NCBI GenBank assembly: GCA_040954595.2
Contig: CM082584.2
Span: forward strand, 3,972,110-4,036,109
Length of the DNA: 64,000 bases
From: Balanoglossus misakiensis
Lineage: Eukaryota; Animalia; Hemichordata
Reading direction: 5' to 3'
Part shown: positions 7,601 through 51,000 of the stretch, piece after piece
Position numbering within the stretch: the first letter of the stretch is position 1
Layout of the letters: every line of letters begins with the position of its first letter
The notes under the pieces: generated by a model
Database searches by the model: none
What the model saw: only the letters and a program-made list of their open reading frames with translations
What the model was told of the DNA's origin: nothing
Program-made: the position numbers and the translations under genes

Positions 7601-10600
7601 GCTAACATGGTCACAACCACTTCCCTTCGGCTCTAAATGTTGTGAACTGCAGTTTTGTTTGATATGAAAAGTTGTCTGTATTGTTTGACTTCTTGAAACA
7701 TGCTTAAATACTGGTCAACTGTTAAAAAACTGTTACAAACTCCACTCTGCCTGTAGACAGACAAGATTAAACATTCAAAGAATGAGTGTTCAATCTATCA
7801 AGGTAGTATTAAAGCCCCTATAGCTGCCAACTTTCACATATTTTTCCCACAGTAAAATATTTCAAATACATTCCCTATCCTCTAAAATCCTCACCATTAA
7901 GCCGTATAACTTGCATTTGCATCAGTTTGTCATCTCTTGGCGACACATACCACGATAGCTGCGTACTGTTCGTATGGAGGCTGATTAAATCCGTGTGGCA
8001 CCGTTTTAATAAATAGCATGTTCAAATTGCTACATGCAGTCACAATCGGGCATCGATAAGGTGTTCATGTATACCTATCAGTAAGCTTGATGAATCAATT
8101 TAAGTTGGAAAATATAACCATGAAAATAATGCAAAAAGTGGCAGCTGTAGAGGCTTTAAAGGGTCTATGACATGCCCTATACAACCACGCGTAAAATCAC
8201 TCTTTGGGTCTTGAAGTTAACGTATGTTACTATCTGGCATTGCGTATCACCTTCTGTGCTTAGATAACAGGCAAGTAAAAGTGGCGAGTGGGCGTGTACC
8301 CCTAACCCAACTCAGTCGATTTTTTTCGGCTTTTCAATGTTAAGCCGAAGACTTATCTTGATGTGGACAAATAGTCTTTCACACCTTTGTAAATCCTCTG
8401 CCTGTAATCTTAGGCAAGGGCTTCTTTTGCTTTGAACACTGCTTAATATATAGTTTGTCTTTGTCTATGTACTTAATTACTCATGGCCCGCTAATTACAC
8501 TTTACTGTAAACAGAATGGTACACTAGAACCTAGTGTACTTGTTTGTCCATATGCAAATACCTTCACCTGGCTCGAGTGCGAAGTGGCTCCCTGATCACA
8601 GGCATGAAAAAAGGGGGCAAATTCCGGCATTCGTGCACATTTTTCGGAACCGACACAATAAGCAATGCATGGACAGGTACCCTAGGTGAGCTTTTGACGG
8701 GGAAAAATAAAAACTTTTTATAGCATGTCATAGACCCTTTAAGGTGTGACATACAGCAAGGACTGCAGTAGACAAAGTATACATGGAGTATGTGTGTTGG
8801 TTCATCTGGTGAACATTCCAGATGTAGGAAATAAAGTGTTTGATCTGGAGTAATTTCAAACACATGGCCATGACTTAATCATGTGTGTCTTTTGGTAGTT
8901 ATGTTTCTATACTTCATGTCATTGTTGCAATGTTATTGTGTTGTCTTTAATCCAGTGAGATAAAAACATGATTAAAATTGTCTTGTTGAATCTTTCAGGA
9001 ACAAGATGTTAATGGTTGACCACAATACTTACAATGCCTTGCAGATCTTTCAGAAGGAACTTCATCCATCCATTTATAAATTTGGCAGCAGTGGTTCAAA
9101 GGAAGGTTTGAGTTTATATGGTAAGTTATTGTGTACATGTACCGGTATTATCATTTCATTTGTCAGTCAGTCTCATTATATTGAACACCTATTGCCTGGC
9201 CATGAGGGCCATAGCAGCCGTTTATTACCCCCAAGGGGCTGTGAGTTACAAGAATCATATGCTATTTCCATATTTTTTTCTGCTATTTCCCTAGGGATTC
9301 ATTCTATTCATATCATGTGACAGATTCTGGCAAATCACGTCACAGTATTAGCATGAGGTATACATGTATTATAAAATCCAATATGGTTGTCAAGGGGCAA
9401 TTTCATGATCTATTTTCTATGTCTGGAGTGATTACTAAGATATGCCTTTGGGACCGTCTCAGATTGTCACATAAGCTCAACAAACGAAATAACTATGTTT
9501 CATGTCAATTCGTTTAGTGGACTTCAATTTCACACTTGTTTAGATGACTAAAAATTTCCTTTTATGTTTTTATTAAAGCAAAAACTAGTGGTGTACCAAA
9601 GAATCTACCTATATTCTGTCTCTCACTCTAGAAGTTCTCTGTTAATTATTTGATTGGATTAAATTACTGCGATTTTCTAACTCTGCAAGTGATCAGAGGC
9701 AAAAGTTACTCAAAATCTATAGCCATTCTTCAACATTGTAGTTTATTTCGGATATCAACACTTAATTTTTCACACTTTTGAGCTGGTGTTTAAAGGAGGG
9801 GGTTCGGATTCAAACGAATACATTTTGTTCGTTGAGCCTAGGTGACAATCTGAAACGGTCCCTTAGAGATCATTGGCCTTTAGATAAACATTGTGCAATT
9901 TCATACATTTTTTGTGTCGTGTCTATTTTACTATCCAAAATATTATAATGAAACAAAGACCACGTGATCATAAACAAGATAGATGCCTCCAATGTCCATA
10001 CGCCAATGAGAGCCATGTTTACAAAAGCCTGTGCCTGACCCTTTCCCTTTAGCGTAGCGCAGCCAGCGGTGGGAATGGGGCAGGGGACCAGACTACACCA
10101 CCACCACCACCAACGACAAACATTCTGTTTGCTTTTGTTGTGTCACTGTTTCATGACATTGTAATAGACTCGTTCAGTCGCAGGTGCACACTATATCCAC
10201 ACTCAGTAAAGAATATATGCATGGCGAACGGGAAGGGAGGGGGGGGGGATATTATGGGCGTGTCCCTGCCCAATTTTCCCTTAATATGGACGTTCCACAC
10301 ATAGTGCCATGAAGCGTTTAGGGACTATGGACAGACTGTCCACAATGTAGAACACGTCCTGCACGCGCCGTGTGACCAACAGATCGTATTGTCTGTGACC
10401 TACTTTACACTATTAAATGTATTATTCAAAACCGCAGCACAGAGCGATATCCATCCGCCATATGCAAATGAGCCGAAGTATAAAAGCAACGAGCAACGTA
10501 CAGTCTGTCCCTCCCTTGCAATAGGCACGATAGCACGAACCATGGCTCATACTGGTCCCGCAGCCCGAGCTTTTGTGGACTCACACCAGGACTCCGCAGA

Positions 10601-10936
10601 ACTTTCCGTTCCCCAGCCAAGACCCGGTCCTAGTGGTGCCACACCCCAGCAAAATGCCGCAGCAGCGCCTAAGCCTGCACCAACACCAGCAAGTGGAGAG
10701 GCAACAAGCGTCAGCAGCAGTGTTACCCAGGTTAGTATTCCCCCTTGTATGCCGCCGGTCATTTCGGTTTTGTTTTGCAGTGCAGTTTTTTATGCACTAC
10801 GGTCCACCAAAACTTCTCTCCTCGTGTTTGTCCTTTTGTTTCGCCTTCCGAATTTTCCTAGTGCAGGTGGAAGGCCAAATCACCATTTTGAAACTCCGCC
10901 ACCTGTTAGGCCTGACACCACCTGTTTCGCCAGTTG

Positions 10937-10968
<32 letters not shown>

Positions 10969-13900
10969 CTATGCAATATGCGTCGAATACTTGGAGTTAC
11001 AGGAGTGAGCGGCAGGCCAGGCAGTGTGATATACTGCGAGAGCGCCAACATTTGTTTGTTAAATAGAGCTGGGTGGGTTATACCCATGAGTGCCAAGGAG
11101 ACCGGCCAGGCAGTTCATCCGGTGATGACTGCGAGAGCGCCGAATTATTGTGGCTGAGGCCAAAGGAAATACATAGGCTCGAGGGAGGAGCAACGTGAGC
11201 GGTCATTTACGTGGCAGAAGCATGTTCGCCTTGAATTTTGCTGATGCCTATGTAATAAGGCGCTCGCCCTGTAAACAAAAGGGGAGTATTCAGTACGGGA
11301 GAGCAAGTATACTTTCCACCCGTGGTAATGGGCAGAGAAGTTATTGTATGTGTACGTTTATTGCAGAAAGGGGAGTTGGAGAACCTAAAGAAGCAGGTGA
11401 AAAAACTGCAAGAATTGACAGAAACCGCATCTGTGGATGACGCCTTGGAAAAAGTCATGCACCTGGCCCATACTCCATCGTTAACCTCACGATCCCAGCT
11501 CATCGCCGCCCTGAGGGCCCTGGTGGATAGGGCGACGGTAGCAGCTCACCCAAAGTTACATCGCTTCCGGGCGGTCCTAGCCCAGTTTGAATCGAATGAT
11601 TTCGGCCAAGAAGCTGGGAGGTTGATAGTTCTACTACTGGGAAATAAAGAAGAGGAGGAAATCGCGTCGAAAGTGTCGAAGTTTATGCGGGATAGCGGCC
11701 ATGGCGGCTATCGTCGCCCAAGAGCACAATTCGAACGATTTAGACCATACGAGAGAAGAAACAAAGATGAATTAGTCACATGCTTTGTATGCGGTGAGAA
11801 AGGGCATGTTGCCAGAGCCTGCCCAAATAGAAAGTAGTGTAACCACATTGCTGTTTTTTTTTTTCTTGTTGATCGTGGATATTTTTTCGTCACAGCAAGT
11901 AAACATGGGTTACTCATCCACGTACACGCATGCACACTTACACGCATACTCCTCTCGGTCGCCTGCACACTAATTGACGCCTTCATGCACACCTGCACAA
12001 TCGCATACTTTCCACAACCACTCGCACTATGGACGGAACGCATTCACGCATATACATAAAATCGCAAAAAACGTGCCTGAGGAACTGGGCTTCAGCAAAC
12101 GCTACACGCACACCCACGATTAAGAACTTGCTGTGATGCTTTTGATAACTTGATATGTACGAAAAGTCGAGGTGCTTACAACCCTCCGTGACAATTAAAA
12201 AGGTTGTCTTGAGAATAAAAAAAATAAATAAATAAATAAAAAAAAAAAAAAAAAAAATGTGTTTTTTGTTTTGTTTTTATCTCGCCTTCCTAGATTGGCC
12301 CCACTCAACCAGTAGCGGATATACCGTATTTATCATACACCAAACATCGCCCCGAACGCAGGGAGGACTAAAACAGTCCTTTGCATTCATGCAGCCTCGC
12401 CTTACTGAGGTCCTGTCTAGGGGCCCCCTCAAGAGAACATTTTTACATGTAGTAGCCCACAGTTTATATCTATCCTTTTCAGTTCACTCCCTACGCATGG
12501 GAAACCGGCCCTGAGGAACTTCCAGTCGCCAGAAAGTCGTACACATGGGTATCTCTTGAGGGCGCCCCTCGACAGGAACCAAGGAGACCCGTTATCAATG
12601 TCGATGAGGTCGCTAAATCCAACAAGAAAGTGTCGCCCGCACTACTATCATTTAGAAACCCACATGAATTTGTCGCCGGGGAGGTTCATAAACACAAGGA
12701 GGTGTGGAATCGCCTATCGACGGCAGCAGAGAATCCGGCTCAAGTTATGCACTGGATATGTGACAAAGTCACCGTTTCACAGTACTTCAAGCACTTTCGG
12801 GGCACGTTTAAGGGATGTCAATATGACGGACCATCTCCACCGGCAAAGATTTTTGCTAATAACCCCTCATGTCAAAATTTCGTTGGTTTCATTTCCAAAA
12901 CCATACATGATAGACTCCAGACTGGGGCCATTTCTGTCTTTGGTGAAGTTGGGAGGGACCCACCTCCCCACATAGTTATGCCGATAACAGTCGAACCGAA
13001 GAAGCCGCGAATGTGCATAGACATGCGCTTCCTGAATCTATGGATCAGAGACATGCCTTTTAAACTGGACAAGTTAATAGACGTTTCAAGGTATATGAAA
13101 AAAGGAGAATACCACTTCAAGTGTGATGATAAAAGCGGCTATCATGTTCTCATTAGGGAATACGACAGGCGGTATTTTGGTTTCCAATGGGGAGGCCGTT
13201 GGTACGTGAACAATTCATTACCGTTTGGGTGGAAATTGTCCGCCTACATCTACCATACCTTAGGCTATGCGATAACTAGTTATGCAAGAATGTTAGGAGT
13301 TCCGTGCCTCCAATATATTGACGACAGACACGGTGGCCCCCTGAGATTGCCAGCAACGGCTAATACCGTAGGCAGACAACACAGCTCCTGGTCTGACTTG
13401 GAACTAGCGGAGGCTGCTGCATTCATCCTGTTAGCTATGTGCATCGATGCAGGGTATTTCATTGCCTTAGAAAAGAGCACACTGCACCCCGTTAGGTCGC
13501 TAATAATGCTAGGAATGACGGTAGACACGGAAATTCAAGCTTTCATCATCCCAGAACAGAAAGTAGCTCGCTTCCTCGAGACGGCAGAGTTAGTACTTTC
13601 CAAACCCACTATTCCAGTTACTTTATTGCAAAAAGTTATGGGGAAATGCATTTCTTTCGCTCTCGCAATCCCCTGTGCGCGTTTATATATAAGACAAATG
13701 GCACATGCCATATCTAAGATGCAGGTATCGGCACAGAACTTGGTGCGCATTAAAGGCCCCCTTCGGGAGGAAGTGCAATTTTGGCTCCAGATTGTACGTA
13801 ACGCTCCCCCATTTCGTTGGCCTCGAGAAAGCCACAACGTTATACATGTATACACCGACGCCAGCTCGTTCAAATGGGCCGCGATACTGCAGCCAAATTC

Positions 13901-16900
13901 GCAACAGCGACAAGTAGTCAGTGACTCGTGGGAAACCGAGTGGATGCCCAGACCAATAGCAGAAAAGGAAGCCGAGGCTCTCGCCAGAGCACTTGTTGCT
14001 TTCAAGTCAGAACTAGCCGACGCGCGGGTGGACATACACTCAGATTCCGCAATCCTAGTCCACGCATGGAATGGCGGCTTCCCCGGATCAAAATCAGTTC
14101 GTTTAAACGAACTGTTGAAAAAGATCTTCAACCTGTGTTTTGAGTCGAATATTCGATTAAGGATAGTGCACGTCAGATCACATGAAAATCCCGCGGATCA
14201 GCCATCTAGGCACCTGTCCTTGTCAGAGGCCACACTCTCGGATGAGGCGTGGAAGAAAATAGACAGGCAATTTGGCCCACACACAATCGATGCTATGGCA
14301 AACAAGTCTAACGCTAAATTATCCAAATTCATTTCCGCTTTTCCACAACCCGAAAACACCGGTGTAAATTTCTTTAATTATAAATTCGCGCCAGATGAGA
14401 ACCTATATGTCTACCCTCCATTCTCGCTCGTGCATGCTGTTGTGAACCACATCGTCCAAAACGCACTAAAAGCAACAGTACTCGTTCCTCGGAGCCACTA
14501 CCCTCCGTTCTGGCCGTCAATCCAGAGGGCGGCACGTAGTTTCAACAAATTCGCCAGTCGAGGGGAGGTCGGCGTCGTGCTTGGGCCAACACGATCGGGT
14601 TATCATCCGTATAAGCTACAGTGCGACCTTTTTGTCGCTACATTCGCCCCTTAGGTCTTAATTATGGAGACAGACAGACAAAAAATAAAGAAACAAAAAT
14701 AATTTTATTCAACGGATAAATATACGTATTTTTTTTTTTTATATACAAGCGACTAAATCATGCGCACTGTACGTCTTCACGTGCTTGTCCAATTTTCCCC
14801 GCTTAGGACTGCTGGATGTGCGGGTTGGACAATCATCACGAAAACTACTGCCATAACTGTGGCACCAAGACTCACTACTCTCGCCAGCGTGAACATGCCC
14901 AGGGAAGTCTCCCAACTGGTTTTAACCTGCCGGAAATCGATCAGCGTATGCAAGTCATTCTCGGCGATCGCTCTCAACATGAAATACAAAAGGACCGTCT
15001 CGTCCAACAACTGGAGTCGTTCCTTTTTAAGTTGGATAGCAAAAAAAGTATCTGGTCGGCAACACCCCAAGATATCACTAGGTTCCTTATTTTTAAAGAT
15101 AAAGACGCGAAAACTCAGGTACATGAGGTAAATTGTGCACATTTAGGATCATCTGGACTCCAGCAGTGTGCTTGTCCAAAAAGGCTCCGTGCCAATACAG
15201 TCAGAAATATGGTCTCCAAATTAAAGACATTTTATCAGTCCCAGGCAGTGGTAGCCGGTAAGGCCACCCCTAACCCCTTGGAGTCAATTATAATAGAAAG
15301 GTACATTAAGAAAACATCTGAAGAACAGGCCAGAGCACTCCTGACACCAAAGCAGGCGAAACCTCTCTTTCTAGATAAGATGCGGCTAATTTACCGTCAT
15401 ATTATAGACAAAATGAAGAGCCCACAAACTGCTCAACAATTGTACATTCTCGCCAGGGATATGGCATTTTTTAAACTACTAGCCTTCTCTGGTGACAGGG
15501 CGCATGATTTAGGACACGTGAAAACGCAGGAAATTTTGCGGCTACCCGATAATTCAGGCCTGCTCTTCAATCACACCTTTGGTAAAACGCTCCGGGGGGC
15601 GGGGTCAAACCTATTCGCAGTTAAGCGATGCCAAGATACTCTCATGTGTCCGATTAACACTTTGGAGGCATATCTCGAGCTTGCATCCAGCCTCGATATC
15701 GACCTTACAACAGGTTACCTGTTTCGCCCTACAAACTCACAGGGAGTGCCAGAGCAAAAGCCGTTCTCATCGCAATTAGCTTATCACCGGTTAAAAACAT
15801 ACCTACTAGATGTAGGAATCGACGCAGGCGAAACCCCACATGGCTGCCGAAGTGCTTGCGCTATTTCTTTGGCCATGGCAGGCACGGACATTAAGACTCT
15901 TATGTCCCATGTGGGTTGGAGGGCGGAAGAAACGGCACAGTACTATATGCAGTTAGGGAAGGTCATTAGTTGGGGATCACCAGCAAGCACCTTATCTGAG
16001 TTAGCCAACGACGAAAAGCAGAACACAAAAAGATATGAGAACCTCAATGAGTTAATTGGATTTTCCAAGGCTTTTGTTGAGAAAAAATGAGCCTCCCGAT
16101 GTATTTCTCTGACACAGTAAATTTATTTTTTTTCCCTTTGTTTTCTCTCTCTCGCACTATACCCCGACAGGGAAGAGTGCACCAGACAATTTTCAAGTAC
16201 TTATAACGGAATAAAGCACAATAAAATGAAGGTACCGTTTTTCGTTCTTTTTCATTTCCAGCCGTAATTTATGGCTGGATGAAGGTTGGGTGTGTTTGTA
16301 GTGGAAGCTTGTTTGTTACTTTGGTTGACTGTATTTTAAGGATTGGGGGGATACCCAACTAGGTAATAATGGGCTCAAGCGCGAGGAGAATAGGCTTTGC
16401 GTCCGGATGCGCCTCCAAAAGCCCAGACCCATTCCTTTAACAATAGGCATATCCATGAGCGAAGTGATGCGGCTTTAAATACTTAGTTATTCAAAACCGC
16501 AGCACAGAGCGATATCCATCCGCCATATGCAAATGAGCCGAAGTATAAAAGCAACGAGCAACGTACAGTCTGTCCCTCCCTTGCAATAGGCCAAGAGAGT
16601 AGGGCTATGTGCGTAAACGGGACAGGGTGGGGATTTTATATGACCAGCCCCCTCGGTAAATCCTTTGCGAATGTATTCCCACCCGCCCTCCCGCTTTTTG
16701 AATATAAGAGGTTTTACACTTCGCTATGGATGCGCCTCCAAAAGCCCAGACCCATTCCTTTAACAATAGGCATATCCATGAGCGAAGTGATGCGGCTTTA
16801 AATACTTAGTACTTTGAACCTTGTTGAACGAAACGTGTTACGCATGCGCTGACTGCATTACCAAGGCTGTAGCGAAAGCTTCTCTGGATCTGGTACCCGA

Positions 16901-19900
16901 TTGAACAAGGCATCATTTGCCAACTAAGGTAAGGTTTAATTTCCTAAGTTGTTCATACATCATTTATTTTGGATGATGGTAGGAAACAATGATGATATCT
17001 TTGTGGTCCGTACAACCTTGAAAATCCCCTCTTTTAAGCGAAAGATCTCTACAATACGTTCCGACTGAAACAAAATTTAACAAAAACACTTCCTGGTTCA
17101 GTAAACTTACACCCCAACAGTCTAAATGGTTGTATTGTTTTAACAAGGTGAATCGCATTCCACTAAATACGGACTATCACAAAACGACCTCGACAATTTG
17201 ATCAGCGACATTATTGTGCAATCAATTTGAAATAATCATATCAAATCAAGAGTAAATACAATTATTTTTTCCGTCCTCGGGAGTGTAGATTTTTGAGGTG
17301 TTATACATGAAAACAGTGTACATGGATATAGGCCATCACCGCCTAGCATTTTGACCACACAACTTTGACCACAAACATCACATGATTCGCCCAAATCACG
17401 TTATGTCATGAAATATGAAAGTGAAAGAGCAGTATGTTTAAGGTGGCATTGCATGAAACCGTCGAGACTTTTTCAGAGGCCTATTTCTCATCAAAGACAA
17501 CGTTAAAACCCCCATAAACCATATATATTCTGGAAGCTGAGTTTTTGAACTTTTGTTTGCGTTGCAAATATTATTGATCCCCGGAAATGGTGGCGATTTT
17601 GGGTTAAAAACCCATTTTTTGATATTATGTCATAAAATTTAAAATAGGTAAAAAAGTTGACCATGCATCATGCATCTTAATATGTCATTCGAAACTAGAG
17701 TACACGTGCAAAAATACGGTAATTTTGTTTTGCGTTATCTGCTTCCATTGAAGAGTAACAGCGTTTGAAAGTTAGATTTTTAGTAAAATTTGATGAAATT
17801 CACGGTGAGTTGTATTGAATCAGAGTTTATTCCCGCCAGGGACACTTTATCGACTAACAAAAACACCGTTTTGTTGGATGGGTCATACACAATCCCCAGT
17901 TAAAATTTGAGCAAATTCGGCCAACGCAGAGCGAAGCTATTTTCGTCTGAAGTTATCAAGAGCAGCGAAAATGCAAACTGAGAAAAACGACCATTTGCAT
18001 TGTTGACACCTATTTGTTAAGCTGTGAACTCATTCAGAAAAGTGCTATTTGGGGGTGATTATGCACCATTTCCGCCAAGACGTATTAGTCAGGATGTGGG
18101 TCAGTATTAGGCCTACCGATTTATGTAAAAAAGTAAAATTTGGCAAAAATCACAACTTTTCATGCAATGCCACCTTAATATACAACTTTTATTTTTTAAA
18201 TGGACACTTTTTTTAATGAGATGTGAATCTTGCATGGATAAAGTGTTGTGCATGCATTTTTTGTCAACAGTTTATCAACATACCTGTCACAAGTTCCAGA
18301 AAGAATCGACTCCCTTTAGCCTTAATACCAACGGATACATTTGTACACATTTCATAAAACCGACATTACAGTAAAGAAAACGATTGTGAAATGGCTAAAG
18401 TAGTGCTGCTTATGATCCGTAGTCTTTTGACCACAAGAATAATAAAAATAATTTGTGTACCTCAAAGCTAAAATCCTGTCCTGCACTAATTTATCAACAT
18501 GTCTATTATTAGTATCCAATATTCATCTTTAATTTATCATCAGATCAACATACCAAGAGTATATCTAACAAAATGGCCGAAGCAATGCCTAGTGGGAGTT
18601 TCCTCCAACAGCGCATAGATGAGAAAATCCTCTTCTGTCCGATCTGCCAAGAACGGATGGTGAAACCCAAAAGTCTACCCTGCATACACACCTTCTGTGA
18701 GAAGTGCCTCCAACAATGGGTGCGACAGAAAGGAGGCAGACTTGAATGTCCGACGTGTCGACGTACATGTCCACTCCCGCAGGCAGGGGTCAAAGGTCTC
18801 ACTAACAATTTTTTCATCAATGACCTGATTGAACTATTTGACGAGTTGCAGGGCAACCCCGGCGAGACCGTATGCGATTTGTGTGCCAGAAAAGCAAGCT
18901 GTTGGTGTCAAGAATGCGCCCAGTTCTTTTGTGATGGATGTCGGCGTAGTCATTTGAAAATAAGGATAACAAGAAACCACAGATTCATGTCTATGGAAGA
19001 ATACAACGCCGTGGCTGAGTCTGGTCGTGATCACCTGATTCGTCCCCGATTCTGCACAGTTCATCAAGACAGTCAGCTCAAGTTATTCTGCCAACACTGT
19101 CAGGTGAATGCGTGCATGGAATGTGCAGTGACCGTTCACAAGGGCCGGGCGCACAATCTGGTGTCGTTAGAAGATGCATTGGAAGAGTTCGACCCAGAGT
19201 TGCAAGACAAAGAAAATGCAGTGTCAAATAGGGTATTTTCACTCCGAGAAAAACAACAAGAGGCAACCAAAGATATAGAAGATATTGACAAAAACGGAAG
19301 TCAGGTTGTGCGTCAAATCAGACATAAAATAGCAGAAATGAGAAATAAATTGCAAAAAGAGGAAGACAGGTTGGTGGAAAAGGCGTTGGCAATGAGTGGA
19401 CAGATGAAGAAAAACAGGCAATCAGAACTGGACCAGATAGAATTCGATCTAGCCTCTGCAGAAAATTTGTATGTCTACACACGAAATCTGCGGACACACG
19501 GCAATGCAGCTGATATACTTTCCCAGAAGAAAGAACTGGTGCAGAGATTGAATGAAATCATAAATGATCGTTCAACAGACCGATACGTACCTCCACAAAA
19601 CACCCGCCTTGTTTTTCAAGAGAACAGCCAGTGCATGCAACTTTCTCTTGGAGAAGTAATCGACCAATCAGAAATGACACATGCTGCACGTGTCAGCCAA
19701 TCAGTTGATCGACAGATACTACAACAGCAACCTGAGGCAACGACCGAGAAATCTGTGATTAAAAGAGAAATGACCGACCAATCCGGGGTGTCTAGTATGT
19801 CACGTGTCAGCCAACCAACTGTCGAGAGGAAACAACAAAGACCTAAGACTCTGGCCCAGAAGACTTCTGCTCCTGGAGTTGTTACTGGTAATATGCCAAC

Positions 19901-22900
19901 GGGAACTATGGACGTTGATAGTAACATATTCTCATACTTAGGGGTGATTACTATTACATATACGTTTGCAGATGGAATACAAGGAGTAAGTAGTACAATA
20001 AAAACGGTTTGAGATGCACAGAAGGAATGTACTGACTATCGATTTGTTTATCAACATAGTCAAAAGAAAACAGGCTTTTCGCATTCAAGGTTAGACTTGC
20101 CCCAAGTCTATAGGCTTAAATTTCAGCAAAATCAATGTTCCGATTTAATATAGCGTGTGTGGAGTGAACGCATTAAGTTGTGGCATCGCGATAGTGATGA
20201 ACAGTAACCGAAACTCAGTACCGAAATTCAACCAAGGCAAACAAACGTATGAAGGGTAATGAGTAAAATTAAGAAATGGGGAACACCTGAATTAGTCAAG
20301 CGAATAGTGGGCTAGTCTAATTCAAGGTGAAGATGAAAAACCACGACTAGACCACAATGCATGCTTTAGTGATAAGAATGTATCACCCTAAACAAACAAT
20401 CTGTTATGAACTGTAACAATGAAAAAAAATCACTGGTCTGTACATTTCTTCTGTGCATCTCAAACACCTTTTTTACCGTTGTCGTTGTATATGTTTGAAG
20501 TAATGGTTTGGCTAAATGCGTTTGCATACCTTTGCAGTCCCGGCTTCTCTGTTTAAGTAAATTTTGAACTGTTCCTGGCTTGTCAATATCAATGTCAATA
20601 TGGGGTATGATATAGAGGGCTGAAAAGTGGTCATGTTTAGTAGTACCTAAGTCTTGCTGTTTCATTTACACACACGAACACTTATCGGCTATTATATCGA
20701 CTTAGTTAACTTCTTCGCAAATAACATTATTAATATTCTTTTGTCAAACTTGGTATGCTAACAACAGAGATTTGTGTATCAATACAAATTATTCACGCTA
20801 CATGAATAAGTGTATCGGAAATGTTTCCTTAATGTCATCATAAACCTGAAAGTTTTGACAGAAAAAGACAGCCAGCCCATCTTGACTTGATGGCCGAAAT
20901 CGCACAGAAAACGCTACAATCCATGTGTGGCTACACTTCATTGTTAGTGATGTTTTCGACTGTCACATTTTGATGATCAAAATAAAAGGAAACAGTCACC
21001 TCCCAAAATTGAACCTTCATGATTTCACCTTTTGTGGAAGTAATCAGATCATAATTGATATGAATATTTATTCTCCACAGAATCCAATATTTATTCTTAA
21101 AAGTTCAGTTAATACACGCATCAAACACGAATGATAACGCAACGATTGGTGGGGAACTAACCAAAGCCACACGTCTTTCTCACTTTTCAAAATTTGAAAT
21201 GTTGACGAGCGCGAGTTGTTTGTTTGAGAGATAAAAATCTGCCGAAGCGCCCTCAACGGCTGTACGTAAAAGTGTGTGTCTGCCAAGAGAGTAACAAACT
21301 CTGTGATCAAGGAAACATGGGTTTATATCTTTCAAATTATTCCCTCAGTAAATTTTCCGACAGATTCCAGTGTGGTAAACAATTATTTATAGTTATTACA
21401 CCTGATACGACATAAATCAGGACAACGTCAAAATGCTTCACAAGACTTGAATTATTATTTTAATTTTAATATTTTGTTTATTTTATCAACTCAAAAATAA
21501 CTAAATACATATATATTTGTAAATAGATTTTTTATAATTAGCCAAATTTTATTGTAGTATGACTAATAAATCATACGTTATAGTTATTATTATTACTATT
21601 TATTTTTCATTTCCAAACCCTACATCTAATCAAGTATTTGTGTGGTTTAGAATGATGTTTATTGCTTTGAATCCTTTGTCAGAAATATTTCGATTTTGTC
21701 ATATAATTTTGGTAAAATCTGACACCATACTCTACAAATTTAAAGAGTAAGTACCAAAACTCCCAAGTCACATGATTTGATGCTGCTTGTGTTGCAGCCT
21801 GAACATCCAAACCCTGGACAGCCATACAGTGGTGGTCAGTTCAAAGGACGGTTACGGGACAATGACGAGGGTCGTGAAGTGCTGCGGCTGTTGAGGATTG
21901 CATTTGATCGCCGACTGACTTTCACCATCAATGGGAAATCAAACAAAGTAGTCTGGAATGGCATAACACATGAGGATTACATTAGGTAAGTTTGATTTCC
22001 ATTATTGCTATTTCATCACACGAACACCCATTTAATTTCAATTAACCAACAATATGTTACTTTTTTGCGATGTGTATCAGAAATTTAAAGGGGTCTTCAA
22101 TCATGTCAGCTCTTGTTTCCCTGTGTGGTTTTAATGGCGAACTGGGAGAAAAAAACATACATTGTAGGTCATTGGAATAGTTATCAAAATTAAAACAACA
22201 CCGTTCCGGTGCCAGGAAAAGAGACACGTAACGTGAAATACATTTCGAGATCTCTATATGGAATAATTTTATGGAAATGCATAGGATTCCAGCCCTGAAT
22301 GTCTAGGTCTCTGCTAGTGACAAAAGTGTACATACATAGGTTATAGCAAAAAAAAAACCTAAAATCAAAGTATTTTGATCAGTTAGCCAACAAATCAATA
22401 GTACCACAAGTCAAAATAGCAACGGCAAAGAACAGACATGTACATGTATTGAAGCTCATTGAACATGTTTGAGCTCACCCGCTGATGGTGATAGTATCTG
22501 TGCAGGTAACCATCTTACTTAATTTTCACGTCTTTTGGTTTCATTGAACTACTCCTCTCGCACCTGAGTGTGTTCCTTGTAATGGGTACTAATGAGGTCA
22601 ATAATCAAGTTATCAGTTCTTTCAAAATATTTAGGGAATTGAAAATCAAAATCTACATATAGACACATTCTTATGTGACTCTCACTCAGACAGAAACGAC
22701 TTGCGCACGTACCTATAAAATTGTTGTAATGTTGATGAAGGGAATATCGACATGTTTTATTACAAACACATCCATTCGCAAGTAATTGTGTGACTGTTAC
22801 AACGTTACACGCCATTGTAACTGGTTGCATAGGAAGGTCGAGTGTGCGATGTCGTTTTAAAATACACAGCTATAAGCATGTGTAATTCAACCTTCAATCC

Positions 22901-25900
22901 ATTGATTGACACCTATTCAGGTTACCCAAAATGGCTATAAATATTGCAGTGGCATAAAATATTCCAGTATTATAAATCCAAGTTGCGTCAAACCCATCCC
23001 TCAATGAATGTCTTGTATTTTGCATCTGTCCATCGCAATAAATTGATGCAGATAATGAACATTAGGGCTTCTAACGTGACAATCAAACAAATACCAAATT
23101 GCCAGATGGTAAAACTAACATGTATAGTTTTGATCAAAACCATCTGGCTTACGTTCATGGCACACTTTCGATTCATATCGAAGTCTTGAGAATCATGGGT
23201 ATATTCTTCAGAATTGTCATATTTCATTTATACTTGGATGGAATTTTGAAATCACTACATGTATTATGTGGTTGTCGTTTGCATACTTACCCGAGTTAAA
23301 TATACTATTCCACGTTCATCGGGATCATACAAAATAAACATAATATGTCTAGTTTTCAGTCCAAACACAGAATTGAGGTTTAACAGCTCATTGGACGTTC
23401 TTTGCCTGGGGATGCTCAAGAAATTGTGTTATTATACAAATTATTTGAACTCAATGCCATGAGACATTTGGCAGCTTCATTTACATATCACTAATTTGCT
23501 GCACATCATTTTAGAATTTATAAACAGAGTTGTAAAATTTTCCAAATGCTAAAGGTGTTAGTCAAGAATCTAAGTACAGGTAATGTCATCACATACGAAC
23601 AGGTATATTAGTGCCAAGTGTGGAATATTATTTCCTTCTATATCATGGACTAGGCATTGGTGATATCTGATTATTAAGTGAGGTGTTATTTTTATCATGT
23701 CACTTTTAGGGTATAACTTGCTTCACAGAAGAGCACAATGCTGTATTTTTGTTATAAAACTTTGTTCTGTACTGTAGTTGTGTATATTTGACATCTCCAT
23801 TTAATTTAATAATATTTAACTGTTGGCAACCAACAGTGGTTTGGCGTCACGGACCATCAAAATTATTATTAGCTGCACAACGCGTACCACACACTTGTGA
23901 GAGTGAAATCATTTCGTGCACAGTAATGGGAAAACTAATACATGTAATACTACACATTTATTTTTATCCAGGTTTTGGATGTCCAATTGGCCATCTTATT
24001 ATGCAAAAGTGAACTGCACGGATGTGAGGGCGCTTTTCCCAATAGACTTAACATGGGCACGTCAATATAGGCATATGATAACAAGTGTTATGTATACTAT
24101 TCCACGTTCACCGGGATCATACAAAATAAACAGAATATGCCAATGTTGGACCAAAGAAACGACAGAATTCAGATGTAACACTTGCACGTTATATCTGTAG
24201 TGATGGTCAGGAAATTGCGATGTTGTGCAAATTATTTGAACTCATAAGATATTTGGCAGCTTCATTTGCTCAAATCTTACATTTATGACACTCATTACTG
24301 CACATTATTTGAAAGTTTTCAAACAGCATTGTTCTCTTTCCAAATTAAAGTCAAGAGTCTGGGTATAGTTAATGTTGTCGCATTGATGCCATCTGTAGAA
24401 TTTGATTTATTTTCTTCTATATCCTGTTACTATAGGCAACGGTGAGATGCGATTATTAAGCGGACTGTTTTTTCTATCACGTCACTTTTTTACGTTTAAC
24501 GTAACACTGAGAAGAGCACCATGCTTTATATTTGTTACAAAAACTTCGTACTGTGCTGTAGTGTATATTTGACATTTCCATTTAATGTCATAATCTTTAA
24601 TTGTTAGTCGTTGTTGAGAGTTACCAACTACAGATTTGTTTATTTTATCCAGGTATATTTTGAGAGATGCTAACTGGCGATCTTATGTGCCACAAGTGAA
24701 GAAAGAATTGGCTGCAAAAGGAGTGGTGTAAATGCCAAGACGCCCTCACAACATGGTTGTAGCCACCACATGGAATGCATAATGAGAAAGACCTCAAGTG
24801 AATGTCAAGTACTCCGTGACGAAGAGTCATTCTCTCAAATTATTTGGAGTTTTAGAAATATTTTATTGTATTATACAGAATAAAATTTGGTAAAGGAAAG
24901 CTAGTGTAGAATAGGATTTTGTCAAGAAAAATGTAGAAGATAAGGATTACTCTGTGTGTAGTCACGGTATATTTCAAGTACAGAATTATCGCTGATCTGG
25001 TTCAGTTCATTTGGGATAATTGCATAGTAATAAACTTTATAAAACTCTCAGCACAGTACATGTAGCCTACGTCACACTCAACATTTGGTCAGAAATACCA
25101 CATTATCCCCAAGTACAACAAATACTAATTGTTTTTTACCCATTGATTTGTAATATAAAAGAAGTTCATTTTTCTTATACTTAGCACTCAAATCTAATTC
25201 TTGCATATATCCAAGTTATTTTACACAGTGAATGGGGTTTTAACACATTAGTACACTGAATATAGATTTGAAAGCCATGTCAATTTTTGCACAAATAATT
25301 CTGAAGATTTTTTAATTCCATCAATACCAATGATATCAATTTATCACATGATAATATGGTTTCTTGAATATAGTCTAACAAGTAACATTTTTTTTTCAAT
25401 TATGTACATAAAATTTGTAACATTGGAAATAAATTACCAATAAAAACCAATACTCATGGCTTTGTTACATCTGTAAATCTAATAAAGCTTTTGTCTCCAA
25501 AGTTTTCATCTCAGCCACACATCCTTACAAGAGGAAAAACTCAATTGCTCAGTGATTTATTGTATACTTTTGAAGAAATAACTTGTATGCATGCACTTTT
25601 ATTTTTCATCCCCTAATTTCCATGTCATACTTCTGCATTTAGTTAATGTCGAATCCTATGTATCTTGCTAATAATCTGTTCTGAACCTCTAGGCTAACAC
25701 GTATCTAACTTTATATCAAGCTAGAAACAGAAGTGATATTCTGTTAAATAAAAACAAATGTATAATAAGGTATGGACGTTGGAGGCAGCAATCTATCCCA
25801 TCATCCCCATTTTTCCCGTACATGTTTCCAAAACTCTATCCCTATAAAATTTACCATCACCAGCGGTCAATAGTCTAGTCTGGTCCTCTGCCCCATTCCC

Positions 25901-28900
25901 GCCGTTGGCTGCGCTACGCTAAAAGACCCAAGGGTCAGGTATGGACTATTGTTAGTATGGCTCTTATTGGTCAATAAATACGAACATTGTGATTGGACGA
26001 ACGCTATTTCCAACATTACAACTTCGAAGTTTGAGTTTGTTTGCCAATCAAAATATGCTTTGGTGAAGTTGAATGAGAAACACTCCTTATCAAACTATCG
26101 AATAGTCTGGTCCTCTGCCCCATTCCCACTGCTGGCTGCGCTACGCTAAAGGGAAAGGAGTCAGGTACAGGCCGATCTTGGCCAAAAACCTGGCCAGCGT
26201 ATTATAATGAAACAAAGACCACGTGATCATAAACAAGATGGATGCCTCCAATGTCCGTATGCCAATGAGAGCCATGTTTACAAAAGCCTGTGCCTCAGAC
26301 CCTTTCCTTTAGCGTCGCGCAGCCAGCAGTGGGAATGGGGCAGGGGACCAGACTAGTCACATAACAGCTTGTCTGTGAGCGCATTTACACACTCTTGATC
26401 CCCCACTCCCAGTGGCCAGGAGTGTGAGAATGTTGTATTATTAGTTCTCTGATATAGAAACCACATCCAAAACAACTTAGGTACTTTTCTGTTCTTATTT
26501 TTTAGGAATAATGAATCAAACAAAATCAGACTTGGGCAAGAAAATGCTAAGGTAAACATGTAGTTACAAATGTGAGAAAAATTATTGAATGGTGAGAAGA
26601 TTTTTGTATTTATCCAAACTTGCAAACAAAAATGAACCAGTACATTACAAGTTCCCCTGGATAGTCGCAAATAAAACTTTTTGACCGTACAACTGTATTT
26701 CTCCTGGCTAGAGCCCAGGGATCTGAACATCGAACATTTACCAGGGGAATGAGGGGTGCTCTTGTCCTAGCACCCACCTTTAAATGTTAAAAAACTGTTG
26801 TACAGTAGATTTGCTAAAATAGAACATTTTATTTACTGAGAAGTAAAAGGATTGTGTTATACAATAATACATACCTGATGTACAAGATGACAAGAAAATA
26901 TTAAATGGGAAAAAAAATGTTGACAAACTTCAATATTACCTACTTCTATTTTACTCATCAATTGTTTATTTCAACTGTAAACATCAGCTGGGGCTCTAAA
27001 TAACAGGATATTTTATAGATTAACCCTTTCACCACTATGGTCCGTTCCAAATCCAATGTTTTCTATGGGAAGATTGGACCTCTATAGAGGAAACTGGGGG
27101 TGAAAGAGTTAATGGAAGTGGGGCCTTTGCCTTCAGGAGCAAGAGCCTCTACCAAGAGAAATACAGTAGATTAAGTTTGTTTGAACCAATATTACAATGG
27201 ACAAGATAATTGACTTGACAATTTTCAACATATCCTACGGGTAAAGATAGAGTTGGATGAATGACAATATTACATACAAACATACATGGAATCCAAAGAC
27301 CATTTATATCTTCATCAAGTTTTCAAAACCAAGAATCCCTTCCCATTTACTATAATGCTGTGTCCCCAATCATGAAAAATTGTTTTGATTTGCTCAGGAT
27401 GTGGTTTTTGAGACCTGTACAGGATATTGATCTCCTGAAGGAAAGACAAGCTGCAATCAGTTTTTTTGTCTCACCAAGAAATATTGAAGTATGCTCATCT
27501 CTACAAGACGCTCTACGGAATATCAAGAATGTCGCTGTACGTAGATTGTTTTTCTACTAAGTATATTTATGTATTTTGAATGACAATTTTTTCAATTTCA
27601 TTATAGTTCATATCAATTTTTGCTACAAGTAGACATATACTGTACTTACTTATAACAAATATATCCTGTGCGTAGATGTTTTTATTTTTGAAAAATACCA
27701 TATATCCGCTGTTAATTTTAGATAAATTCTCTTTGTATTTGAATTTTCTTTGATAGTTTGCATTGTGTGTGTGCATTGTATGTGTTAGAGTGAAAGGTCC
27801 ATCGTTTGAGGGCGCTCCATATGTTAGCACTCTTGAACGAATTGGATCCTGTGTGTGGAAGAACCAAATACATTAGTTTTATCAGAAACGTGTAGTACAT
27901 GTATCTGTAGTATATTGCAAACATATGGATTATGTATTATTGTTCTTTTTGTTTATTTATATTTCTAGAGAGTGTTGGGTCGGATGAAAACAGCTCAAGC
28001 CTCAATCGGTGACTGGCAAGCCTTATACCAGGTAATATACCAAGCTTATTCTATAGTTAGTCCATTAGCCAAAAGTTGATTTTACTGGAACTTACATGTT
28101 GCGAAGCTCAGAAAAAGAAAGAGTGTAAAAGACTTCAGAATCAGATGTTACTGATCAAATAGCCATATCCAGGTATAACACACATTAAATTATCTATATA
28201 TGAGTATGAGCTACCAAAAAATTATTGCAAAATTTGGATTTTGGTGTACAGAGAGGGGGGGGGGGGCAGATAAACATTGGAATTCAGGGGCTACTTGGAC
28301 CATACAGTGTTTGTCTACTGGTCAAGTAAACAGTGTTCCAATAATTCCCCTTGCGTAGTTGAGTTCAATCAAAAAGTATAAAACATCATTGAAATTACCA
28401 AACATGCACTTCACAAGATCCCTCAGCTGCTGTCTGATTCTTTTTTTTTTGTTAAAGCACAATAAGCTGTATTAAAACTTTGTTTGTATAAGCCTATAAT
28501 TTGCGCCACCCCAATTCTCTCCAAGTTTCATCAAGTCCTTAAGTTAATATTTTCACAATACTTAGTAAATAAATCTACAATAATTACACACTTTAAAGAT
28601 AACTTAGATCATTGATATGAAAGAGATATCTTGCCTTTAAATTATTTATTGCGTGTTACTTGTAGACTGCCTACAATGCAATATACATTGGTGATATATG
28701 CAGAGCTCAGACTGCTGATGTGGCCATCTTTAAGAAGGTGAGGAAACTTTCATAAGCAATTTACATTTACTGTCGTGTATTGGTTTTAGAAATGTAACAA
28801 ATGAGTCTGTTAATGTGTAAGAAAGAAGTCGAGACTTTCTAAAATAGTCAGTGCATGTTTTTTTCAATGTCACCTGTGATTTTTATTCCTGTACACCTAT

Positions 28901-45977: not shown

Positions 45978-48081
45978 GTACTGGTAGTGCTTATAATGTA
46001 GGTACATGTATATTGTTAATGGACATTTTCACTCAAAAAGTCAAGAACATGAAAGAAAGATATTTTATTCCAGCAAAAACACTGATTGGTGATGATGTCA
46101 TTGTCAATTATTTTAAAACAGTAAGAAAATCCTCCCCCCCCCCCCCCGCACCTCCCATGTGGCACCCGTCATATATCAACCATTACTTCAAAATACAAAG
46201 CAGTCACACACTGAATGCAACTGTCAATGATGCCAGTATTTGTTTACTTGTCCACTAGCTCATGATCAACTGCCAAAAAGTGTTTGGATGTAGAAACAAG
46301 TCTTTTTCTGCAATAACCATAATAAGTTTGCAAAATCAGTACATGCTCTTGTATAGGGAATTAGCTGGGAGATGTATTAGGCTGGTGAGAGTGGAATATT
46401 GATAGTAAAGTTGAAATCATCTTCAACAGTTTTTTTCTGCAACATTTTTGTATCATGTCTGCCTTTTTCTCTCATTTGGCTATGGTGACTTATTCACAAA
46501 TATAATTTCTATCGTTTTTGTTTTTTAATACACTTCCATTTATCTATTTATGTCATTTATTGTTCTCGCTTGATTTTCCCCCTACATTTATTTCTGTTTT
46601 TCATGTTAAAGTACAGTCCTTTTCCATGTTATCTGTTATTCTTTCGAACTTTTTAGGGTTTTTCCAAAAATTAACAATATTCTACTGTCCTGTAACTTCC
46701 TCTATTTGTAAAGTCGTGTTATTTTCAAAACTATACACTGTAATTACCATGCACTAAGCTGTTTTCTCTTTTAGTGTACAAAAAGTATGGCAAATACCAT
46801 TATTTTCTTAAAAACTGAAAGTGGTTGTCTGCTCATCTCACCATGTACAGCAAATTAAGATGCTGATTGGTTAAATTGAAAAATTATCTTTTATACCTTG
46901 AGATTATATTTTCCAATTCTCCAAATTTCACATCCACATTTTAGTATAGGTTTAAAAGGACTAGTTTGCTTACTTTTAACATCTTTTTGATCGTATTAGT
47001 TTCTTTTGATAGATGATTTATGTTGTTTGCTGAAAAATGGAAAAATCACTGCTTGTTACTATCACATTCTGTATAAACTAGTCTCATCATTCATTGAAAA
47101 CCACAATCTTTTAGCGGCAACACATAGTTTCTGGGTTACAAGCCAGAGGTAGATGACTATGGCCCGTGAGAATGACCCTGTATATAGATTATTCAACGTA
47201 ATTTTGGTTTTTGCCTAAAATTAAGAGACGGAAGTATTCATTTGTTATTTCAAGTGCATTTTACAGGCCATGATCTGAGCGTTGGCAAAAAAGTCATTAG
47301 ACATATTCAAGTAGAATTACATAAATAATTTCTCATAAGAATAAAATGATGAGAATAATGTCAAAAGTGGGTGACTTTGTCCCTTTTTATCACAAAATCG
47401 TTGTCCATTCACGATTTTAAAAGTTTAGACATTGTTATGATCTGCTGAATACAACAGGATGCTTTTAATGCCTTATTATATAACAATTCTCTAGCTAAGT
47501 CCATTTTTTCCATTAGATTAAAATTCTATATCAAAACTTTTAACCATTTCCAATTCCAGTTTTTGGTTTATTTTTATATAAATTGCCATTGGTCTTGGTT
47601 TAATTCCAGATATTTTTAAAGTCAAAAAATATTTTATATAACGATTACTACAAAATTGTGACTGGGCTGCATGGTTGAATTTATATGTCTCTGGCTGCAA
47701 CTGAAAAATGAATGTACCAAACATGATGACACTACAGTAAATGATATTGTAATAGCTCTTGTCTCAGGCTGTGTAAGGGGGGGGCATTAATAAAATTCTT
47801 TGTTTTGCCACCTGTTTGCTGTTCATTTTTTCAGAGAAAATAAAATGCAGATTATGCTGTAGAATAAAAAAAAAACGATATTTTCCATACCGTTGACCAT
47901 CCAATGAGAAACTGGGTTTATGTACTTACGCATACACTTGTATTTCTTTGTTTATTCAATTGGTGGCTGGGTAAGATTAGGGAAAATTGCTGATGGCTAA
48001 CAAAGGATTTTATTTAATATGTGATCTCTTTTTTTCTGAATACCCATAACATTAACACAATACATTTTCCATATTTAGATA

Positions 48082-51000
48082 ATGAGTGAGCAATTACCTG
48101 GTACGAGCAGAACTGGGTGTTTTCCAAGGACAAGAATCCACCAACCAGGCAACAACACTGATATGACGACTTTATCAGAGACATCAGACAATAATGTTTT
48201 ACCAGATATGTCTGAAACGGATATTGAAAACAGAAGTCAACGTCAAACTTTTAACAATGATGAGGAAGGCTCTCAGGTACTGTATTTATATTTATATTGT
48301 CCTTCTTCAAACTCAGTGGTCTGCATTGTTTGTAAGTGTGTAGTTATTCCACAGGGAACTCAGTAATTTTGTTATTGTTATTGTTGTTGTTATTGTTGTT
48401 GTTGTTGTTGTTGTTGTTGTTAAGATTGGTAATAAAATTTAAAAAAAAATCAATGTGTCATTTCTTGCTATGTTTGTCGATGTTATAGATAACTGTAAAA
48501 AAAAAACCCAACCATAATCGTGGAAAACACGACCTAGGTCGCCGAATGTCACTACCGTCTTACATACAGGCAAGGGTGGAATCCACATGCCCTGGATCTA
48601 GGCTCATGGGCCACCTTCAAGGCCCTGAAAAATCACCCCATTCACCAGCGAGCGATTAAATTATGCCACCATAGGCATTGAAATTTATCTCACTGACCTA
48701 ATTTGGGCTTCACTTCATCTATCGACCTGCAAACGAGTGGAAAAACGGCGATTTCCAAGTCGTACCCAGTCAAATTCAATCACATTTGAATCACGCGCCC
48801 GATGGTGATGGCTCCGTTTTCTCTGCCTATTTAAATTGACCAATCGGGCGCCCTGTAAAGGCTGCCTCGGCCACCGCTCAACTCGTACGAGTACGTGTAA
48901 CTGCGTTCAAAATAACGCGAAAAAAAGGAGGCGAAACCTTAAGAGTCATACAGATAAATGGATACTTCCCAACTTTGTCATAAAATCTACCATTTTACGT
49001 CTTGAATACAGTGCAGTCGATAGTCAGAACGTACACTTCCGGGTGTTGCTCGTACGAGTTGAGCGGTGGCCGAGGCAGCCTTTACAGGGCGCCCGATTGG
49101 TCAATTTAAATAGGCAGAGAAAACGGAGCCATCACCATCGGGCGCGTGATTCAAATGTGATTGAATTTGACTGGGTACGACTTGGAAATCGCCGTTTTTC
49201 CACTCGTTTGCAGGTCGATAGATGAAGTGAAGCCCAAATTAGGTCAGTGAGATAAATTTCAATGCCTATGGTGGCATAATTTAATCGCTCGCTGGTGAAT
49301 GGGGTGATTTTTCAGGGCCTTGAAGGTGGCCCATGAGCCTAGATCCAGGGCATGTGGATTCCACCCTTGCCTGTATGTAAGACGGTAGTGACATTCGGCG
49401 ACCTAGGTCGTGTTTTCCACGATTATGGTTGGGTTTTTTTTTTACAGTTATCTACAACATCGACAAACATAGCAAGAAATGACACATTGTTTTTTTTTTA
49501 AATTTTATTACCAATCTTAACAACAACAACAACAACAACAACAATAACAATAACAAAATTACTGAGTTCCCTGTGGTTATTCAAGCACATGGGTGATGCA
49601 ATTTAAGTTCATTATCAGGCTGCATCGAAAATAAATTTGAAAACTATTTGGTGTTTTATGGGTTTTAGTCCACGTAGATTAGGTAATTCAAGAACGGATT
49701 GAGTAGGTCAAGTTAGATTCGTAACGTTTTTCACTCTGAAAATATCTGTGTCCCTCCAGAAACTGAACTGTTAAGTATATAAATGACATCAACACCATTT
49801 GGTAGTTTGTACTACTGTACTATAGAAAGTAGGGACTGTCGCTATGGCTGTTTTGGATCATTCGGTCCATTTCTGTTGAGATTACAGATTCATTATATGC
49901 AACTGTTGAGGGCGCTGTTTTCATCAGTATTTCTTGTGCTCACGATGCTGAAGTTAGTCTCGGTTTCGGATTCGGATTCGGTTTCGGATTCGGGTTCGAG
50001 AGACTGAAAGTAGTTAAGCATTTTCGAGCGACCATCGCGGTTTGGCATCTGCATTACGAGTATGAAATAACTCTGTAAAAATATGAATATATTTGATCAA
50101 ACTCTCTCGACATTATACGTATGACATTTTTGGCACCAAAACACTGTTTTTTCACATCGGAAATTGTTAAATACATATTTTATTATCGAAAAACATACTT
50201 CAATGATAGAAAGATAATATTTTGTAATATTCGGTTTGAATAAACATTTTTGGGTGAGAAAAATGTCATACATAATAAGTGCAGATTAAATCAAATTTAT
50301 TCGTGTTTTAGTAAATTAATTTTCATCCTCGTACTGCAGATGCTGAACCGCGATGGTTGCCCGAAAATGCTAAACTACATTCAGTCCCTCCAACCCGAAT
50401 CCGAAACCGAATCCGAAACTGAATCCGAAACCGAATCCGAGTCTTACTTCAGTATCGTCTTGTGCTCCCTGTTTAGATATCTAGACGTACATAGGCTCCT
50501 CTCTGAAACCTTAGTTTCAGGGAGGAACCAACATCTAGGTACAAGACTTGCAACCTCTTGGCCCCTTTGAATGTAGATTAACAAACAATGAAATCTGCCG
50601 CATGGACTATCCCCTTCCATAAACGGGTGGGGCATTTATGAATTCTGGGCTTGATCTTGAAGGTGACTAAGGGGTCAAAATGAAGCAATTGCCCCATCAA
50701 CTCGGGCTTATAATTCCTTGGCAAACCCCTCCCCCCCCCCCCCACATTTGTCCTGTATCGCCCGAAGTGGGCTCCCTTGGGGATAAGATTACATCGACTG
50801 CTGCATCAGAGGTCCAGTGTTCTCCCCAGGAATTTCTGACAGAGTGGTGGCTAATTTACATAACAATATTGATAATTGTTATGTTAAAGAGTTTCTATTG
50901 TTTTCCAAAAATTACAGAGTGTTGGCCGTGCTCTGAAATTGCTCTGGGGAGAACACTACAAGGGGGTCATATTGCATTGTCTGATTGCTAATGTCACCAT

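Follow-up and report, generated by a model that had tools for sequence, protein, structure and literature searches.

How might a tyrosine recombinase (YR) retrotransposon make three proteins from open reading frames (ORFs) that lie apart from one another? This question, which is unaddressed in the literature searched, is raised by an element of the hemichordate Balanoglossus misakiensis in a stretch of 64,000 nucleotides (nt) of contig CM082584.2 (assembly GCA_040954595.2, positions 3,972,110 to 4,036,109; hereafter the window, in whose coordinates positions are given). The element, a young PAT-like retrotransposon, likely expresses Gag, Pol and recombinase by splicing one coding leader exon in phase 0 to each of its three ORFs; an unspliced RNA would be the template of reverse transcription. 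A preliminary description, made from the letters of the window, had proposed one promoter with alternative splicing and polyadenylation; here its sites are set against relatives of the element, their predicted proteins and rival routes of expression.

Three separate reading frames behind one predicted coding leader

The gag, pol and recombinase ORFs proved separate in the ORF analysis, as had been claimed, and the three proposed acceptors are present in phase 0, namely TTTATTGCAG before 11367, TATCCTTTTCAG before 12483 and TTTTCCCCGCTTAG before 14807, opening frames of 156, 723 and 427 codons respectively. Upstream, the frame from ATG 10542 (the first ATG downstream of the TATA box) spans exactly 63 codons to 10730 and is followed by CAG/GTTAGT in phase 0, again in agreement with the preliminary description. 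The first in-frame Met is codon 31 after the acceptor in gag and codon 89 in pol, bearing out the late ATG noted for the latter. In the recombinase the zinc ribbon (CWMC...CHNC) occupies codons 2-18, and its first Cys at codon 2 precedes the first in-frame Met at codon 4, as had also been seen; an in-frame TAG (14804-14806) stands directly 5' of this exon.

The Pfam domains recovered are a zinc knuckle in gag, reverse transcriptase (RT), RNase H and Dam-like domains in pol, and ALOG and phage-integrase domains in the third ORF, with the gag zinc finger and the recombinase encoded on the same strand. The pol matches RVT_1, RT_RNaseH and Dam each lie below the gathering score (Dam E 0.0028); the methyltransferase-like domain after RNase H has IDAMA and YVYPP motifs that fall in conserved columns of a 42-row alignment. 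In the recombinase, ALOG_dom (E 3.6e-14, 53.5 bits against a cut-off of 26.6) precedes Phage_integrase (E 2.1e-9). The RT motif at 13128-13157, otherwise conserved, is one residue shorter than in 38 of the 42 aligned rows, and the window copy may thus be defective despite its open frames, or carry a sequencing error.

A predicted promoter lies in the left terminal repeat A1, where ATGCAAAT at 10462 is followed by TATAAAA near 10480; we take these to be an octamer and a TATA box. The ATGCAAAT word is found ~18 nt 5' of the TATA box in both A repeats (10462-10486 and 16527-16551), and its presence in A2 might allow transcription to start there and proceed through B2 to the flank.

Phase-0 acceptors in distant relatives

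Ninety loci were collected: 10 came from genome contigs, and the other 80 were the best among 397 confirmed metagenome matches. The pol anchor was present in 80 of 91 sequences (window included), which form 52 families at 75% identity, six of them with too short a flank. In a blind test the best-scoring AG within a fixed range was taken first for each family and its phase read only afterwards, the window being excluded from the counts. The pol acceptor so obtained is in phase 0 in 21 of 29 intact families (p 1.9e-5), and in 29 of 45 with broken ones added; a control range within the ORF gave 13 of 46. For gag, phase 0 was found in 15/21 families (p 4e-4), and for the recombinase in 10/13 with a strict and 16/22 with a relaxed anchor (p 1.8e-4), although, as a point against too strong a reading, these families are related by descent, and the p values express conservation across distant families and no independent origins. 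Many acceptors of the relatives are an in-frame TAG, and the ORF therefore starts right after the acceptor. Likewise, a Met before the first ribbon Cys is missing in 8 of the 10 open recombinase exons of relatives that have the zinc ribbon. The comparison with other family members, proposed in the preliminary description as a check, bears out the acceptors and their phase in distant families; in molluscs the donor for pol and recombinase lies inside gag.

Some further observations concern the relatives themselves. In loci L035 (3380-8157) and L084 (399-5123) the recombinase precedes gag and pol, reflecting either a permuted order or tandem copies. Loci L082-L088 are animal-type retrotransposons in bacterial genome bins titled Sedimenticola and Thiodiazotropha, and likely represent host contamination. 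The predicted first-intron region of many relatives, upstream of gag or pol, contains degenerate tandem repeats (L012, L025, L032, L036, L052). A scan of viral contigs for relatives gave 68 pattern matches and none confirmed.

Predicted proteins with a shared N-terminus

A search with the gag exon recovered 16 matches, 13 of which are NCBI models of Ptychodera flava with 49-81% identity. All 13 possess a low-complexity N-terminus of 55-93 amino acids (aa) rich in Ala, Pro, Ser and Thr, and in 12 it contains FVxxH, a motif picked after inspection of the sequences, comparable to FVDSH of the window leader. Alignment scores place the leader similarity above that of composition-shuffled sequences in no more than 3 of 14 P. 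flava proteins; it is therefore position, composition and the FVxxH motif that carry the leader link. In the P. flava models P0126 and P0127 such a leader is fused directly to the start of pol, and XP_070561811.1 (pol, isoform X1) and XP_070561812.1 (leader and gag, isoform X2) are consecutive accessions whose contigs agree in length.

Models from mollusc-type relatives extend this pattern to the recombinase. A query with the oyster recombinase N-terminus gave 162 matches, and among the best 150 the 31 newly listed ones of at least 190 residues were inspected. The oyster proteins P0270 (Logan), P0271 and P0042 (both NCBI) have a common N-terminus, beyond which, from a single point, they continue as Gag, Pol and recombinase; pairs of scallop and Lineus models diverge in the same manner. 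The mussel models P0281 and P0279, placed on locus L034, show GT-AG joints at the very gag and pol acceptors already picked in the blind test. An acceptor just 5' of the leader ATG in mollusc-type relatives (L034 800-1400, L047 2100-2530, L064 100-600) points to a non-coding first exon there, and in L034 the leader itself is interrupted by another intron.

Donor choice and alternative routes of expression

Splicing of the shared leader to all three ORFs is likely in the window copy, with several observations weighing against it. The splice-site scores are rough and untrained, being drawn from generic frequencies; by these scores the pol, recombinase and gag acceptors rank 3, 14 and 24 among the 420 AGs of the element, and decoy AGs at 16262, 12294, 10781 and 14750 outscore chosen acceptors. 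Most such decoys belong to T-rich tracts that follow poly(A) signals, and the gag acceptor at 11367 is the blind best within its search range; before the window recombinase the blind best is 14750, the frame of which runs into the TAG at 14804-14806. Given these higher-scoring AGs, the choice of acceptors cannot be proven from the window by itself, and the earlier selection by eye gains its excess over chance from the relatives. On the protein side, the supporting sequences are predicted gene models, except P0270, which is a Logan contig. P. flava pol isoform X1 (P0146) begins at an internal Met, without a leader. P. flava P0127 and Lineus P0065 get to the recombinase via a 5' piece of pol, and among 109 matches no hemichordate model joins the leader directly to the recombinase. 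Finally, in all three mollusc-type loci the pol and recombinase models leave gag at a strong donor inside it (AAG/GTGAGG, AAG/GTACGG and AAG/GTGAGA); the part common to these proteins is therefore the leader together with the gag coiled coil.

This last pattern, shared by molluscan and nemertean models, could mean that the leader is always joined to gag first, and that a donor inside gag (11397 or 11454) then serves for a second splice to pol and recombinase, or one inside pol (12702) for a splice to the recombinase, which would still leave the leader common to all three proteins. P0127 and P0065, as leader-5' pol-recombinase models, fit such chaining, as do the ranks of the window donors 12702 and 11397 (3 and 6 of 327). 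However, the window counterpart of the molluscan donor, AAA/GTCATG at 11454, is weak, and the codon at this position is Leu in 3 of 11 hemichordate-type gags, making GT impossible there, while P0126 has its leader fused directly to pol. Several P. flava gags have a codon other than Val at the position of the 11397 donor, and the best donors in 14 gag exons outside molluscs, at 5/7/2 for phases 0/1/2, gave no conserved gag-internal site; nor was there a hot spot for a donor in the 5' part of pol among 50 family representatives. In a pol tree of 38 rows, made up of relatives found in the present searches, the window groups with P. flava and Glandiceps talaboti (support 100/100), apart from the mollusc rows with the gag-internal donor, and the nearest relatives of the element come from acorn worms. 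Chained splicing in the window copy is thus unlikely, and the weak 11454 site, the Leu codons of relatives and P0126 favour the leader donor in this clade. For the recombinase the same donor may be used, with a route like that of P0127 and P0065, here from 12702, as an alternative candidate. Of the original proposal, the single promoter, the shared spliced N-terminus and the three phase-0 acceptors are supported, the acceptors being conserved in relatives and the N-terminus represented there by models; because molluscs branch inside gag and two models pass through 5' pol, the single donor at 10731 common to all three remains at the level of inference.

Two further possibilities concern the start codons and the template. 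If gag alone were spliced to the leader, Pol and recombinase might begin at internal Met codons (12747 and 14816) on separate or read-through RNAs, the remaining acceptors being by-products of T-rich spacers. P0146 and P0147 do begin at an internal Met, P0130 begins with MDLECW, a Met lies a few codons past the acceptor in some relatives, and T-rich tracts behind poly(A) signals do score as acceptors. Yet a start at 12747 would lose a conserved FxAG segment and one at 14816 the first ribbon Cys, T-rich spacers leave the phase bias unexplained, and models with the shared N-terminus are known for both pol and recombinase, making this the least probable of the alternatives. Only slightly less remote is the idea that the proteins are spliced as proposed here while the reverse-transcribed RNA is an antisense transcript from B2, to which sense introns and poly(A) signals would be no obstacle. 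Such a template would need no unspliced read-through of three poly(A) regions, and the TATTTAAA word, which the right end carries on its minus strand, might be read in its favor. Against this, the element has four minus-strand AATAAA, which are not depleted on that strand in relatives, and according to PMC7192593 the transcript of Dictyostelium DIRS-1 itself loses a marker intron in the course of retrotransposition.

Poly(A) signals

The AATAAA sites described at 12214, 14684, 16210 and 16220 were all found, together with others at 12223, 12231 and, inside gag, 11643. In relatives AATAAA occurs within 250 nt after the gag stop in 8/21 families versus 1.5 expected (0 of 500 simulations) and after the recombinase stop in 4/7 versus 0.7; after pol the enrichment is weaker (6/19 versus 2.3 expected; 7 of 500 simulations), and an antisense control showed none. 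The pol-to-recombinase spacer, mostly shorter than 180 nt, holds a signal in 3 of 15 families versus 1.8 expected. These counts use AATAAA alone: the looser AATAAA or ATTAAA, counted between gag and pol in 15 of 21 on the sense strand, was dropped because the minus strand also gave 10 of 21. The claim of three terminal exons with their own poly(A) signals is therefore supported by enrichment for gag and recombinase, and weakly supported for pol; the pol and recombinase mRNAs may instead have one common 3' end.

Anatomy, class and recent insertion of the element

The span first given for the element, 10542..16225, was too short since it left out the terminal repeats, the full element extending over 10422-16810 (Table 1). 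An empty insertion site is preserved at ~56544 within a duplicated segment ~46 kb from the element. The repeats are direct and ordered A1...B1A2B2, with the internal pair located after the recombinase. There is no target-site duplication: the flanks meet in the empty paralogous site with one shared T, in a paralog 90-95% identical, a degree of divergence at which small differences could be masked. The identical repeats and the clean empty site indicate that the insertion is recent and the element young. The segmental duplication that includes the empty site covers ~22 kb (~1480-23270 versus 47900-63770, 86-96% identical).

By the structural key given in PMC4157794 the element is PAT-like, and it also fits the ALOG class as presented in PMC3537659. 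A Ngaro-like assignment was rejected given the methyltransferase-like domain, although split direct repeats with an internal pair fit that group as defined in PMC4157794. DIRS1-like elements were likewise rejected, as self-BLAST inside the element gives direct repeats only, with neither inverted terminal repeats nor an internal complementary region. An assembly artefact was discounted because the repeats are perfect, the empty site is clean and relatives are laid out in the same way.

The joint of B1 and A2 is covered by an imperfect palindrome that resembles a tyrosine-recombinase site and is a predicted recombination site. Its 11 paired positions were reached in 1 of 114 control scans inside the element, and palindromes at the B1/A2 joint score 10-12 of 13 in three of five relatives (L081 ~6988, L047 ~10976, L086 ~9700).

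Table 1. Features of the retrotransposon, in window coordinates; GT ranks are among the 327 of the element
Feature	Position	Strand	Basis or remark
Whole retrotransposon, PAT-like, ALOG-recombinase class	10422..16810	+	Ends by self-BLAST versus empty paralogous site ~56544
Split direct repeat A1	10422..10526	+	Identical to A2, 100% over 105 nt (self-BLAST)
Predicted coding leader exon, 63 codons	10542..10730	+	Ala/Pro/Ser/Thr-rich; FVDSH at codon 11
Predicted phase-0 splice donor CAG/GTTAGT	10731..10736	+	Rank 2/327
Predicted intron 1, 636 nt	10731..11366	+	A run of 30 nt near 10937; stop codons in frame 5' of gag
Gag exon, 156 codons, CCHC zinc knuckle	11367..11837	+	Pfam zf-CCHC E 3.9e-6; predicted 219 aa with leader
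Candidate second phase-0 donor inside gag, CAG/GTGAAA	11397..11402	+	Rank 6/327
Predicted gag poly(A) site	12214..12275	+	Three AATAAA, then A run and GT/T-rich tract
Pol exon, 723 codons: reverse transcriptase (YIDD), RNase H, adenine-methyltransferase-like	12483..14654	+	Predicted 786 aa with leader
Candidate phase-0 donor inside pol, GAG/GTGTGG	12702..12707	+	Rank 3/327; could feed recombinase acceptor
AATAAA after pol, inside A-rich tract; weakly supported poly(A) signal	14684..14689	+	0.66 expected by chance in spacer
Tyrosine recombinase exon, 427 codons: N-terminal CxxC...CxxC ribbon, ALOG domain, catalytic domain	14807..16090	+	Predicted 490 aa with leader
Predicted recombinase (possibly also pol) poly(A) site	16210..16262	+	Two AATAAA and T-rich tract
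Split direct repeat B1	16405..16487	+	Identical to B2, 100% over 83 nt (self-BLAST)
Imperfect palindrome over B1/A2 joint, predicted recombination site	16469..16500	.	13-nt arms, 11/13 paired, 6-nt spacer
Split direct repeat A2	16487..16591	+	Self-BLAST
Split direct repeat B2, right end of element	16728..16810	+	Self-BLAST

Proposed mechanism

The above observations suggest a scheme in which the predicted promoter in A1 would give rise to one pre-mRNA, whose 63-codon leader would be spliced, in phase 0, to one of the three acceptors (gag, pol or recombinase). Gag, with the closest acceptor and a strong poly(A) site behind its exon, would be the main product, while pol and recombinase mRNAs would skip gag and retain the same N-terminus, the pol mRNA possibly ending after the recombinase rather than at 14684. 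No early start codon other than that of the common N-terminus would be available, and this N-terminus may assist in bringing the enzymes into Gag particles. Reverse transcription would use a read-through RNA that is unspliced, rarer and runs into B2, and with such a template introns would be kept in new copies. Its ends might be rebuilt on the split repeats, following a model cited in PMC6681497, with integration at the B/A joint, the place of the imperfect 13-6-13 palindrome.

For the PAT-like/ALOG lineage of marine invertebrates as a whole it appears rather probable that a genomic RNA without any full protein yields three products via one coding leader, and that the branch point was rewired while the acceptors were kept, a strategy hitherto undescribed. 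In this generalization the leader donor would operate in acorn worms and the gag-internal donor in molluscs.

Comparison with known retroelements

PMC4157794 ascribes to PAT-like elements (echinoderm-form Pat1-like) the same A1...B1A2B2 repeats, methyltransferase-like domain, Gag zinc finger and same-strand recombinase; the spliced expression predicted here is unmentioned in the passages found. The ORFs of YR elements in general are described in PMC6681497 as often extensively overlapping, unlike those of the window, which are separated by predicted introns. The element also resembles the ALOG-recombinase DIRS1-type retroposons of marine invertebrates (Iyer and Aravind 2012, PMC3537659), which combine the same Gag knuckle, RT-RNase H, adenine methylase and recombinase with zinc ribbon and ALOG domain; their metazoan copies were found there to be mostly disrupted, whereas the window copy has three open frames and identical repeats. 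Introns and splicing are unmentioned in the main text of that paper.

In other retroelements splicing takes different forms. The Pol of foamy viruses is made from a spliced pol mRNA, and the polyprotein of Ty1/Copia elements is translated from unspliced RNA. Foamy viruses and other spliced retroelements likewise make Pol apart from Gag and use unspliced RNA as the genome (PMC3196705); in the window element, by prediction, Gag too needs a splice, a coding first exon is common to three proteins, and a tyrosine recombinase integrates the copy. In plant Ty1/Copia, splicing is similarly coupled to early termination and gives an excess of Gag (PMC5580714), but there the splice yields a Gag-only RNA, whereas in the element described here no complete protein of the three would be encoded by the unspliced RNA. 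Penelope-like elements also keep introns after retrotransposition, though the intron studied functionally in the passages of PMC8557442 lies in the 5' untranslated region of a single ORF, and a choice among three coding acceptors is undescribed there.

No description of spliced expression of a YR retrotransposon was found in the literature searched, in which Repbase entries and supplements were not covered and an earlier mention is possible. Introns and splicing are unmentioned in PMC3266345 and PMC3783388; the consulted portions of PMC4157794 and PMC6681497 do not mention introns and speak of splicing only in an unrelated sense. Nor is such expression described in the passages seen of PMC7192593, PMC2632668, PMC13465315, PMC9341512, PMC9940879, PMC12477816 and PMC8557442.

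If the proposal is correct, a widespread lineage would make three proteins by means of the host spliceosome alone, without frameshift or read-through, and would still have to shield an unspliced RNA against a number of splice sites and poly(A) signals. How transcripts are divided between mRNA and genomic RNA could be tested in existing oyster, mussel and acorn-worm RNA data. ORF-based libraries would truncate the proteins of such elements, and many sets of 'uncharacterized protein' isoforms in RefSeq would be transposon transcripts.

Neighboring features

An apparently intronless TRIM ORF (RING-B-box-coiled-coil) occupies 18513-20012, 1.7 kb right of the element, and has a paralog at ~57500-59000 in the duplicated segment. 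A dispersed short repeat occurs in both orientations at 9941-10098 (just left of the insertion), 25873-26355 and 56177-56235. Further along, a long inverted repeat at 48349-49576, with arms of at least 513 nt that are 97-99% identical, is probably a foldback element.

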